Part shown: positions 23,221 to 38,006 of the stretch, in pieces
How positions within the stretch are numbered: position 1 is the first letter of the stretch
Layout of the letters: every line of letters begins with the position of its first letter
IMG/VR virus record: IMGVR_UViG_3300020051_000004
Reading direction: 5' to 3' (one strand)
Source of the DNA: a virus
Length of the DNA stretch: 64,000 nt
Position numbers and translations under genes: made by a program
The notes under the pieces: generated by a model
Database searches by the model: none
The model's input: the letters and a program-made list of their open reading frames with translations, nothing else
Told to the model about the DNA's origin: nothing

Positions 23221-24525
23221 GAAAAGAAAACCTCTTCCTTTAGGTAGAGGATGAATTTTCGCATAAAGTTTCTAAATTTTATTAAAGTTTGTAAGATTAA
23301 GTGTAATACTATTTGAGATGACGCATCGCGCCTACAAGTTTCGCATATACCCTACGCTTTGTCAAGAGGAAATCTTGCGCAAGACAATTGGATCGTGCAG
23401 ATTTGTGTATAATTGGGCGCTCGCCCAAAAGCGTGAGGCTTGGGTAACGCAAAAGAAAAGTGTTTCGTATAACGCCACGTCAAAAGGCTTGACGGAGTTG
23501 AAGGATTCTCCAGAAAAGACGTGGCTTAACGAGGTGTCAAGCGTTTGCTTGCAGCAGAGTTTGCGTAATCTTGATTCTGCGTTTAACAACTTCTTCAAAA
23601 AGCGTGGCGGTTATCCATCGTTTAAGAGTCGCAAAAACGGTGGGTCTGCCCGATTTATGGATAACGCTTTTCGTGTTAGTGGCGACTCATTGTTTCTCGC
23701 AAAAATTAAAACGCCAATCAAAGTTGTTTGGTCGCGAACGCTTTCTGGCGAACCAACTTCTTGCACGGTTTCTCAAAATGCTTGTGGTCAATGGTTTGCA
23801 AGTTTCCTTTGCGAAGAGGAAATAGTCAAACTTCCGCCTTCCGACAAAAAGATTGGCATTGACGTTGGAATTGAGAGTTTTGCGACTCTCAGCGATGGCT
23901 GTTCGTTTTCACAGCCGAAAAAGATTCGTGGTTTGCGCAAAAAGTTGGCGCGTCTTCAGCGTTTACACGCACGCAAACAGAAGGGTTCTAAAAACCGTGA
24001 ACGTGCTCGCAAAAAGGTTGCCCGCATTCATCAGCACATTGCAGATGTGCGCAGAGATTTTCTCCACAAACTAAGCACTAAACTCGTTCGCGAAAACCAA
24101 GCGATTGCAGTTGAAGACTTAGCTGTTCGCAACATGGTTAAGAACCGCAAACTTTCTCGCTGTATAAGCGAGCAGGGTTGGCGTGACTTCCGAGCTATGT
24201 TAGAGTACAAGTGCGAATGGAGTGGCCGCGAACTACTAATCGTAGATCGTTGGTTTCCAAGTAGCAAAACGTGCTCATGCTGTGGAGCAAAGGCTAGCTT
24301 TGGCTTAGAAACAAGGCAATGGACGTGTGATAGCTGCGGCGCTAATCACTTGAGAGACGTTAATGCCGCGAAAAACATTTTGGCCGCTGGACAAGCGGTG
24401 TCAGCGTGCGGAGTGGACGGAAGACCAACGAAGAACTACGTTCTTCGGGGCAGGACACAACGAAGCACGAAACCCAAGGCGCGAGCCGAGGAATCCTCGC
24501 CTCTTTAGGACGGGGAGGATGTCAA
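23221..24525 (+). mobile_element. IS200/IS605-family TnpB-only (IS1341-like) element
   Basis: Left-end hairpin CCTCTTCCT-TT-AGGTAGAGG; right end GAATCCTCGCCTCTTTAGGACGGGGAGGATGTCAA; no target duplication; removal restores a TAG stop in the flanking gene. Confidence 0.85.
23318..24508 (+). CDS. tnpB: RNA-guided endonuclease TnpB
   Basis: AYKFRIYP, RFVYN, RuvC GIDVG / VEDL / RDVNAA intact, Zn ribbon CSCC...CDSC. Confidence 0.95.
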   Translation: MTHRAYKFRIYPTLCQEEILRKTIGSCRFVYNWALAQKREAWVTQKKSVSYNATSKGLTELKDSPEKTWLNEVSSVCLQQSLRNLDSAFNNFFKKRGGYPSFKSRKNGGSARFMDNAFRVSGDSLFLAKIKTPIKVVWSRTLSGEPTSCTVSQNACGQWFASFLCEEEIVKLPPSDKKIGIDVGIESFATLSDGCSFSQPKKIRGLRKKLARLQRLHARKQKGSKNRERARKKVARIHQHIADVRRDFLHKLSTKLVRENQAIAVEDLAVRNMVKNRKLSRCISEQGWRDFRAMLEYKCEWSGRELLIVDRWFPSSKTCSCCGAKASFGLETRQWTCDSCGANHLRDVNAAKNILAAGQAVSACGVDGRPTKNYVLRGRTQRSTKPKARAEESSPL

Positions 24526-36308: not shown

Positions 36309-36773
36309 TTACTCGTCCGTTGGCGTTAAAAGATACTCGTAATATGGAGAATATTCGGGGCCAAACATTGCAATTTGCCGAGCATTTGAAACGATAGCGA
36401 ATCTTTTGCCGTCTAGCTCTATTCTGCGGGCATCTTTTAAAAATTCATTGGCCGCACTATCTACTTTGATTTTTACTGAGCCTGCTGGTAGGGCAACTTT
36501 GTTTTGTCCGCCCGTAGAAGATGAGCCGTCACTAAAAGAGAATAGTTCTTCGTCTCCTTTTAGGTATCTGATGCGGGCCTTGAAAGTTAGCGATACTGGG
36601 GTGTATTCAAGATTTGTTTGGCCGTAAAAAGAATTGTAGCCCGAATCTGTAGAGATAGAAACCATTTCGCCGTCTTTATAAGCAACAACTTCGCGGGCGA
36701 ATGTTTCGTGGATGTTATTAATCACGTCGCTGATGCTGGTTTTTTGGGCGCTACTTAAATAGGAAATGGCCAT
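36309..36773 (-). CDS. Putative head closure protein
   Basis: FKARI and RIELDGKRFAI typical of head-closure beta barrels; GTGTAA 8 nt upstream. Confidence 0.6.
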   Translation of the reverse strand: MAISYLSSAQKTSISDVINNIHETFAREVVAYKDGEMVSISTDSGYNSFYGQTNLEYTPVSLTFKARIRYLKGDEELFSFSDGSSSTGGQNKVALPAGSVKIKVDSAANEFLKDARRIELDGKRFAIVSNARQIAMFGPEYSPYYEYLLTPTDE

Positions 36774-36776
36774 ACT

Positions 36777-37184
36777 TTAATTTACACGCCTTGCTTTTCT
36801 GGCGGATAAATCTGCGGCTGAATTATTTTTTCGCGGCACCCATTTAAATACAACTTGGTTGTGATTATTTTTCGCGGCCAAAAGTTTTTCCCATAAGTCT
36901 TGGTTTTTTACGGGTTTATTATTGTAGTTTTTCCACCCGTTCTTTAACCATTTATGAATATACTTAGTGGCTCCACTTACTACATACTGGGAATCCGACA
37001 GGATAATTATCTCTTGAGGGTCTAAGAAGTGAGACAAGGCTTTAATCGCGGCAGTCAATTCCATTCTATTCGATGTTGTTTCCGAGAACTCCATTCCAGA
37101 GAAGCTTTTCCCATTTATTACATAAGACCATCCTCCTTGTCCAGAGGAAAGATCATAAGAACCATCTGTATTTATGTAAACCAT
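36777..37184 (-). CDS. rnhA: Ribonuclease HI
   Basis: TDGS, TSNRMELTA, SDSQYV, KNQDLW, KWVPR..N..AD. Confidence 0.92.
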   Translation of the reverse strand: MVYINTDGSYDLSSGQGGWSYVINGKSFSGMEFSETTSNRMELTAAIKALSHFLDPQEIIILSDSQYVVSGATKYIHKWLKNGWKNYNNKPVKNQDLWEKLLAAKNNHNQVVFKWVPRKNNSAADLSARKARRVN

Positions 37185-37239
37185 CTAGTTATAATAGCAT
37201 AACTCTATATTCTAAGTACTCTTTACTCTCTAAGTTTCT

Positions 37240-37660
37240 TACCCTTTAGGGCAGTCGGGCAGTTTTTTGTCTGCCTTTGTGAGGAGATACTATTTCAGCC
37301 ATTGAAGGTTTAGAATGCTTTGTCGGTATAGTTCGGCTTGCGCCTATCTGTCTTCCTCGCCTTAATTCTATGCTAGGTTAAACTCATAGAACACTTGGGC
37401 ACTGTTGAAACCGCTGGGTTAGCTGACGAATCGAACAGACGTTGTGCCTCAAGTTGGTTTCTCGCCCCTTCGGATTTCTCCTAATGCGATACGATGGAAT
37501 CTTAACTGGGTTCTCCCCACGGCAAACACTTAACTCTGATTTTACCCATCATGTTAAATGTCGGCAACTGCTGAAAACTGCCCTAAAAACAGCGTTGCGG
37601 TTGCATTCATCCTTGTCAACTGGTCGTAAAAAAGCCTACGACTGGCCTTTGGTTATGTCT
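37240..37660 (-). ncRNA. Candidate large structured non-coding RNA, family unknown
   Basis: 11-bp closing helix, at least six internal stems, GNRA loops and G-U pairs favouring the minus strand, GTGTAA motif at 37668-37673 pointing into it. Confidence 0.6.
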
Positions 37661-37667
37661 CTATATA

Positions 37668-37693
37668 TTACACTTATTCGCGCTTTCGTGTAA
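37668..37693. promoter_or_regulatory. Back-to-back divergent GTGTAA motifs
   Basis: TTACAC at 37668-37673 and GTGTAA at 37688-37693. Confidence 0.65.
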
Positions 37694-37715
37694 AGAAAAA
37701 CAAGGAACAGGAAAA

Positions 37716-38006
37716 ATGACAGCAAAGGACCAACTTTTGGCGGCTCAACACGCCCAAATCAAAACTCTATACAAGAGCCTACTCAGAGAAATCGAAGACT
37801 TGAAAGAAGAGTTTGACGAGCGTTTTCGACTTTTTCAAGATCAACTGCCGCCAGAATATTTAAAAATGTTAATTGCGGCGAATCCTTTTACTGAGGACCG
37901 ATTTTTTCGTTTGCGCAAAAGAATTTTAGATTCAGGCAACGATGTTGAACGTGCGCTGGTTGGCGAGTCTGAAAGGTATAGCGTTTCTTTTGTTTTTAAA
38001 AATTAG
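37716..38006 (+). CDS. Hypothetical late protein
   Basis: AGGA-rich leader after GTGTAA; LRKRILD. Confidence 0.65.
   Translation: MTAKDQLLAAQHAQIKTLYKSLLREIEDLKEEFDERFRLFQDQLPPEYLKMLIAANPFTEDRFFRLRKRILDSGNDVERALVGESERYSVSFVFKN

Follow-up and report, generated by a model that had tools for sequence, protein, structure and literature searches.

Genomic setting of the locus

The window (the whole 64,000-nt stretch of DNA analysed here) stems from a large, very divergent and uncultured tailed phage. The contigs of its relatives span 118–164 kb, and few genes have matches in PHROGs. The gap of about 530 bp that the original prediction had noted in the coding region is real: it covers 531 bp (37185–37715) and is flanked by two divergent genes, the RNase HI gene rnh on the minus strand and an ORF of 96 aa on the plus strand (Table 1). 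The 96-aa ORF heads a block that ends with a tape measure protein of 2252 aa. Gene orientation diverges at the RNA locus. The element within the gap has a GC content of 0.47, compared to 0.38–0.42 in its flanks. We found no second copy of the element and no significant complementarity to it elsewhere in the window, and ARAGORN detected neither tRNA nor tmRNA genes in the 64 kb. The cumulative GC skew of the window has its minimum at about 6.6–10 kb, where gene orientation flips as well (10216); this region is a better candidate for the replication origin than the RNA locus.

The protein encoded by rnh belongs to the RNase HI family (PF00075) by its fold and by its D-E-D-D residues. Its PDB match is E. 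coli RNase HI (E=2e-26), with D10, E48 and D70 aligned. This alignment begins at residue 2, the whole Pfam domain is covered and the ORF is complete. Four RNase HI homologues share the catalytic residues D7, E42, D64 and D125 without exception, and the basic protrusion is present. The segment that matches the His-124 loop of the E. coli enzyme is shorter in all four homologues.

Table 1. Position of the RNA, its helices, the neighbouring genes and the GTGTAA sites in the window
Feature	Position	Strand	Remarks
154-aa ORF	36309–36773	minus	no assigned function; head of the minus-strand gene block
RNase HI gene (rnh)	36777–37184	minus	135 aa; Pfam PF00075, E=1e-31
Spacer to rnh	37185–37239	minus	poorly conserved; 54–58 nt across lineages; 64% purine in the window
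Conservation island	37240–37659	minus	nucleotide identity across six lineages
3' extension	37240–37274	minus	H16 (37259–37274) and H17 (37240–37253)
RNA core	37284–37659	minus	376 nt; conservation, structure and covariation
Stalk (H1, H2, H4, H5)	37659–37603 with 37318–37284	minus	5' and 3' ends paired; carries H3
GNRA hairpin H15	37335–37344	minus	GGC-GNAA-GCC; return strand; loop GCAA, GAAA or GUAA in three lineages
Inner domain, with H8 as closing helix	37357–37525	minus	source of covariance model R1
H14	37365–37392	minus	invariant
Long arm H12/H13	37393–37454	minus	H12: one compensatory pair, two G.U switches
GNRA hairpin	37472–37481	minus	GGA-GNRA-UCC; loop GAAA or GCAA across lineages
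Hairpin H7	37526–37561	minus	13 bp; two compensatory pairs, two G.U switches
Hairpin H6	37564–37598	minus	16-nt loop with invariant UAGGGCAGU
H5, 5' strand	37603–37608	minus	pairs with 37313–37318, about 290 nt away
Hairpin H3	37623–37642	minus	C-G to U-A compensation in L177 and L311; loop varies freely
Promoter-like site TTTACA-N18-TAATAT	37665–37694	minus	contains GTGTAA (37668–37673)
Divergent GTGTAA copy	37688–37693	plus	22 nt upstream of the 96-aa gene start (ATG); SD-like AGGAA between
96-aa ORF	37716–38006	plus	first gene of the tail block
GTGTAA sites	15321, 20914, 23301, 26109, 29922, 37688, 39752, 51234	plus	often after an A-run
GTGTAA sites	34792, 35662, 36787, 37673	minus	often after an A-run

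The element is conserved among related phages

Homologous gaps were found first in two IMG/VR contigs (L001 and L002), and further ones (L177, L178, L179, L261, L262 and L311) were found in short contigs from metagenomes and Logan via the neighbouring proteins. When comparing pairs of lineages, we find 87–96% nucleotide identity in the RNA core, compared to 64–76% in the rnh DNA and 63–75% in the RNase HI protein (ranges across six lineages, leaving out pairs with L261 and the L001/L002 pair). The window and L177 are one example, with an RNA core that is 95.7% identical and only 63% identical residues in RNase HI. The same picture emerges from a 3.9-kb alignment to L001 in bins of 100 nt, where identity is 0.48–0.81 in the coding flank and rises to 0.83–0.93 between 37250 and 37650. 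The high identity of the element across diverged phages could partly result from recent exchange; however, rnh belongs to the same cassette and has diverged much further, so that a simple recent transfer is not a likely explanation.

Searches beyond these loci detected no further member. Scans of IMG/VR with exact and gapped motifs, checked with nhmmer, returned only the two contigs already identified, and a motif scan of 185,579 species genomes gave chance matches only. Similarly, blastn of the region against 50,697 phage GenBank records found no match, and 80 cellular rnhA loci from a metagenome scan with generic RNase HI patterns all lack the RNA. The covariance model R1 found no relative in 127 other loci. 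The search set was made up of 98 sources, one of them the window, and of 29 additional loci with relatives of the 96-aa gene, and it also covered RNase HI loci of distant phages.

The element differs between lineages by indels of 1 nt, its substitutions show no codon periodicity, and its longest ORF, which is antisense and has 77 aa in the window compared to 47 aa in L001, is not conserved. We thus conclude that the element does not encode a protein.

Conserved structure of the minus-strand RNA

To describe the structure, we used a nested RNAalifold model of the minus strand, transferred it to an alignment of seven sequences (A6) and scored it there. The model contains 107 base pairs in 17 helices, and 98.8% of the cells are paired across the seven sequences. 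The six close lineages are at least 87% identical, so that the majority of pairs are without variation and the statistical power is limited. Changes on both sides compensate each other in six pairs, compared to 0–1 in six slid controls. None of 500 shuffles reached the observed covariation score. The compensated pairs are spread over H3, H5, H7 (two pairs), H12 and H13. They include a long-range pair in H5 that changes from U-A to C-G in L001, L002 and L262. Seven further pairs alternate between Watson-Crick and G.U pairing. On the plus strand these alternations would be A.C mismatches, and no switch to A.C was seen on the minus strand. In addition, both GNRA tetraloops vary at the N position only. 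The compensated pairs, the G.U switches and the restricted variation of the GNRA loops together identify the minus strand as the functional one.

The RNA core is organised around a stalk that joins its two ends and closes a multi-branched junction, from which H6, H7 and the inner domain emerge. The inner domain in turn contains H9, H10, one of the GNRA hairpins (37472–37481), H11, the long arm H12/H13 and H14. Long unpaired stretches in the junctions are invariant, which points to tertiary structure or putative ligand contacts. The loop of H6 could pair with the invariant ACUGCCC at 37259–37265, and would then form a candidate pseudoknot that competes with H16. Conservation ends at 37240, and no U-tract follows. 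In the spacer behind it, L002 carries four tandem copies of GGGTAAGAG (L002:3923–3990), directly 3' of H17 and in purine-rich sequence; the other lineages have no such expansion.

Several helices had been predicted from the window before, and the comparison between lineages allows us to revisit them. The stem 37525–37534/37553–37562 is kept as H7 in all lineages with two compensatory pairs, the stem 37393–37402/37444–37454 returns as H12 with one compensatory pair and two G.U switches, and the stem 37366–37372/37385–37391 is part of H14 and invariant. The proposed 5' hairpin (37623–37642) is kept as H3 with one compensatory pair. The two GNRA hairpins (37472–37481 and 37335–37344) occur in all lineages. 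The choice of the minus strand was likewise correct, as G.U pairs and GNRA loops read correctly there only. Two proposals find no support in the other lineages. The outer helix 37577–37587/37245–37255 can be formed in the window, but its 3' arm, the second of two tandem ACTGCCC copies, is changed in every other lineage. The T-loop-like sequence (37428–37436) forms one of the two strands of H13, and in L262 it is mutated. Of the tandem copies, for which two pairing registers had been proposed, the first is invariant and could pair with the loop of H6 instead.

The folding energy does not distinguish the element from shuffled sequences. Its z-score for the whole gap is −1.1 on the minus strand and −0.7 on the plus strand, and across the tested segments it ranges from −0.9 to −1.9 on the minus strand (core) and from −0.6 to −1.3 on the plus strand, which is not significant and differs little between strands. 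The original prediction had considered a folding energy no better than that of shuffles as speaking against the element, and the energy taken alone does so. It is the comparative data that reverse this verdict, and the evidence that the element exceeds chance comes from the comparison of lineages and not from energy.

A promoter-like site and the GTGTAA motif

Upstream of the RNA we found a promoter-like site that occurs only once in the window and never in shuffled sequences. Its two hexamers, TTTACA and TAATAT, are invariant in all lineages, whereas the sequence of the spacer between them is free. The GTGTAA motif that had been predicted to point into the element (37668–37673) lies inside this site and is invariant too. 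A second copy points in the opposite direction, towards the 96-aa gene, and is the reverse complement of the TTTACAC box in the RNA promoter (Table 1).

The motif as such is not over-represented, with 26 copies in the window compared to about 31 expected. It is the position of the copies that is unusual: 11 of them are located at most 40 nt upstream of a gene start on the same strand, compared to about 0.5 expected, and all 11 lie within 15.3–51.3 kb, where packaging, head and tail functions are encoded. In five cases the distance to the ATG is exactly 8 nt and a Shine-Dalgarno sequence is absent, and copies at 15–22 nt from the start have an SD-like AGGA in between. The arrangement GTGTAA-N8/11-ATG is also found ahead of the 150-aa gene in distant relatives, with motif and spacing present in L159, L325 and L330. 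GTGTAA is thus probably a −10-like phage promoter element that yields leaderless or short-leader mRNAs. The phage genome also contains a TnpB-like transposase (23318–24508, plus strand; phrog_506, E=9e-136), with GTGTAATA 11 nt before its ATG; judging from this sequence, the TnpB-like element appears to be wired to the promoter motif of the phage.

Eight nucleotides past the GTGTAA of the RNA lies G37659, the first paired base of H1. We infer that transcription starts near this position and that it takes place late. GTGTAA precedes packaging, head and tail genes, and this pattern supports the late-promoter motif of the original prediction; the late timing itself is presumed. No minus-strand terminator was found between 37659 and 37184, so the transcript probably continues into the RNase HI gene. 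The rnh gene itself has no GTGTAA motif of its own, and a conserved TATTATA-like box is located 5–6 nt upstream of its ATG. Based on this box, rnh could perhaps be expressed from its own start, in which case its functional link to the RNA would be weaker, or it may be read from both the RNA promoter and its own.

RNA and RNase HI form an accessory cassette

RNase HI is present wherever the DNA downstream of the RNA is visible (the window, L001, L002, L177, L261 and L262), and the 530-bp element is retained in L178 too. Each of the four RNase HI clusters (63–84% identity) accompanies the RNA, and the RNA was found only with RNase HI. By comparison, more distant phage RNase HI genes have no gap upstream, and cellular ones belong to unrelated operons. 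The RNA and RNase HI are thus one accessory cassette, which is located between the 154-aa ORF and the first gene of the tail block. Relatives that do not carry the cassette have the 150-aa and 96-aa genes only 45–62 bp apart (24 of 29 further IMG/VR relatives, and L159–L166).

Other phages carry different cargo in the same slot, namely an HNH endonuclease gene in L170 and L171, a 265-aa ORF in L167 and L168, and a block with peptidase M23, DFP and flavoprotein genes in L173 and L174. In the sister contig L180 (525–626, minus strand), the same conserved promoter stands before a distinct RNA of about 100 nt, which has two strong hairpins, a minimum free energy of −40.6 kcal/mol and a z-score of −6.4. 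Its second hairpin is a U-tailed terminator. This RNA has no Rfam match and precedes a 98-aa ORF that lacks a Pfam match; with an alternative pairing between its hairpins, it looks like an attenuator.

The cassette in the window is bracketed by GTGTAA copies at 37673 and 36787. This arrangement suggests that cassettes may be exchanged by recombination at the promoter repeats.

The RNA matches no described family

We compared the element to the 4227 models of Rfam 15, using the gathering threshold for the window, E-values up to 10 for 37000–37900 and E-values up to 1 for related loci. At the gathering threshold there was no match in the whole window, and at E-values up to 10 the region 37000–37900 gave only three chance matches of about 15 bits. 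Nothing was found at E-values up to 1 in L001, L177, L262 and L180 (the last of which lacks the RNA). The RNA is thus a new family that matches no described RNA family, whose function could still be of a known kind. In the literature that we searched, no RNA is described upstream of a phage RNase HI gene. A large survey of phage csRNAs makes no mention of RNase H, and its candidates have an average length of 67 nt (PMC10690425).

Individual classes were rejected for further reasons. A group I intron would require an interrupted gene, and there is neither such a gene nor an upstream exon, and the RNase HI ORF downstream is complete; the Rfam intron models have no match in 37000–37900. The helix model covers nested helices, and a P3-P7 pseudoknot core with a G-binding site would lie outside its scope. 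A tmRNA is rejected because ARAGORN is negative in the window and no T-arm precedes the 3' strand of H1. For RNase P RNA there is no Rfam match at E-values up to 10, and the fully nested order H1-H2-H3-H4-H5 is unlike the P2/P4 arrangement. The models of GOLLD and ROOL do not match either, and there are no tRNA genes in the 64 kb. The original prediction had been unable to match the element to RNase P, tmRNA or group I and II cores. No expression platform of a riboswitch or attenuator leader, such as a terminator/antiterminator or a pairing that covers the ribosome-binding site, was seen: there is no terminator between 37659 and 37184, the conserved fold stops 54–58 nt ahead of the ATG, and conservation does not extend to the spacer.

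A folded RNA that may act together with RNase HI

We conclude that 37240–37659 on the minus strand is the gene of an undescribed structured non-coding RNA of about 420 nt, which forms a cassette with RNase HI, and we assign a probability of roughly 0.75 to this reading. The core of the original prediction, a structured minus-strand RNA of this size that is linked to RNase HI and lies outside Rfam, thereby stands. It further appears that the folded RNA itself is the product and not a mere leader. We weakly prefer the reading that it is a stand-alone folded RNA working with RNase HI.

Such a system might operate as follows. Transcription would begin near G37659 from the promoter at 37665–37694 and read on into rnh. 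The resulting RNA would comprise the 376-nt core with its paired ends and the two 3' hairpins, about 420 nt in total. This compact RNA may then act jointly with the RNase HI of the cassette: its exposed loops, which are invariant, would anneal to single-stranded DNA, and the RNA strand of this hybrid would then be cleaved by RNase HI. Cleavage might mature a primer, or it might remove or exploit the hybrid, possibly against host defence. We consider this last step tentative, with the odds clearly against it. A broader idea, which we regard as somewhat more speculative still, is that the RNA belongs to a new ribozyme-sized class that serves as dedicated partner of RNase HI, in a portable cassette that would prime DNA synthesis or disarm a host system that depends on hybrids.

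Alternative explanations

The alternative that survives best is that the RNA serves as an extended, structured 5' leader and regulates rnh in cis, as a sensor similar to a riboswitch or as a stability or standby element. The element is indeed directly upstream of rnh on the same strand, no terminator separates the two, and rnh lacks a GTGTAA motif of its own. In L180, moreover, the same promoter precedes an attenuator-like RNA whose hairpins include a terminator and which is followed by another cargo gene. However, the conserved structure ends 54–58 nt before the start codon, and both the spacer and the region of ribosome binding show little conservation and lie outside the conserved pairing. 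There is also no pair of terminator and antiterminator, and the TATTATA box 5–6 nt before the ATG suggests that rnh may have its own start. A closed multi-branched RNA of 376 nt with two GNRA loops that is conserved far beyond the gene that it precedes would furthermore be an unusual leader. We thus consider a leader unlikely.

The original prediction had also proposed an R-loop primer processed by RNase HI. In its full form, this explanation describes the element as a pre-primer like ColE1 RNA II, whose folded transcript would stay hybridised to the DNA downstream. RNase HI would cut this persistent RNA-DNA hybrid and thereby prime DNA synthesis, and the cassette would amount to an accessory origin of replication that is portable. 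The co-inheritance of RNase HI with a promoter, a structured RNA of about 400 nt and a tract rich in purine (37185–37250, 64% purine) would fit, as would the position of the site at a divergence of gene orientation. Nevertheless, the cumulative GC skew turns near 6.6–10 kb and not at the RNA locus, the purine content falls within the range that upstream regions of other genes show, and no antisense regulator was seen. The cassette also lies in the structural module, far from the replication genes, and most relatives lack it and hence replicate without it. A pre-primer of this type is therefore improbable.

Less probable again, and in our view very unlikely, is that the element acts as DNA, e.g. 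as a platform for protein binding, a packaging site or an origin, or that it is recently exchanged DNA without an RNA function. The divergent intergenic position with two back-to-back promoter motifs and the weak z-scores of the folding energy are consistent with this. Duplex DNA is, however, not expected to show long-range compensation, strand-specific G.U switches and loop variation that is restricted by the GNRA pattern. We saw no repeats or iterons by eye in the alignments, and the stronger divergence of rnh in the same cassette speaks against simple recent transfer.

Finally, it is hardly credible that a group I intron, RNase P RNA, tmRNA, GOLLD, ROOL or phi29-type pRNA has diverged or degenerated into this element. 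In size, paired ends, GNRA loops and the conservation of its junctions it does recall RNAs of ribozyme size, but Rfam has no match at E-values up to 10, ARAGORN is negative, flanking exons and tRNA genes are missing from the window, the RNase HI ORF is complete, and most relatives lack the element, unlike an essential pRNA.

Comparison to known systems

The stand-alone folded RNA that we prefer would join a small group, as to our knowledge few bacterial or phage RNA classes of 350–800 nt adopt a complex conserved fold. Each of these has opened up new biochemistry, as seen for RNase P, tmRNA, group I and II introns, OLE, GOLLD, ROOL and the omega-RNA of IscB. The RNA presented here is new at the family level and is better conserved than the surrounding proteins, and its link to an enzyme that acts on RNA-DNA hybrids leads to a concrete hypothesis. 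In addition, it demonstrates that an accessory slot in the structural module of a phage can carry RNA as cargo, and it defines, for a group of uncultured phages, a promoter motif whose mRNAs appear to be leaderless.

The pRNA of phage phi29 is an essential packaging RNA of about 170 nt. Like this pRNA, the present RNA is phage-encoded and structured, and it is located amid structural genes with their promoter motif. In contrast to the pRNA, most relatives lack it although they have the same head and tail genes, and it has no match to the Rfam pRNA model. A role of the phi29 type is unlikely as the element is dispensable, and a virion or packaging role, as the original prediction had considered, would hardly be an essential one, given that most relatives have no such cassette.

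A second comparison, which like those to ColE1, GOLLD and ROOL is no more than an analogy, is to the omega-RNA of IscB (HEARO) and to the msr-msd RNA of retrons. These share with our cassette the arrangement of a promoter, a structured RNA and a nucleic-acid enzyme on the same strand that are inherited as a unit. The protein, however, is a plain RNase HI of the E. coli type with 135 aa and not an IscB, TnpB or reverse transcriptase, and the RNA has no Rfam match to HEARO and no evident guide or template segment.

A parallel for pairing a structured RNA with RNase HI is offered by ColE1. RNA II of ColE1 is a replication primer, whose function needs RNase HI to cut the RNA-DNA hybrid. Both RNAs are structured, have their own promoter and are similar in size (about 400–550 nt). 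In ColE1 the host provides RNase HI, whereas here the gene is inside the same cassette. The present RNA further differs from RNA II: the two are not homologous, the locus shows neither an origin signature nor a turn of the skew, and relatives can dispense with the cassette; an equivalent of the antisense RNA I was not seen.

GOLLD and ROOL resemble the present RNA in that they are large, elaborately folded, phage-borne non-coding RNAs without a known protein partner or function. They are longer, with about 580 and more than 800 nt compared to about 400 nt (PMC12286853). The expression of GOLLD rises late in infection (PMC12286853). Whereas GOLLD and ROOL in phages are usually located by tRNA islands, the present RNA is tied to RNase HI and confined to one phage clade. 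Like GOLLD and ROOL, it has been recognised by its conservation and covariation.
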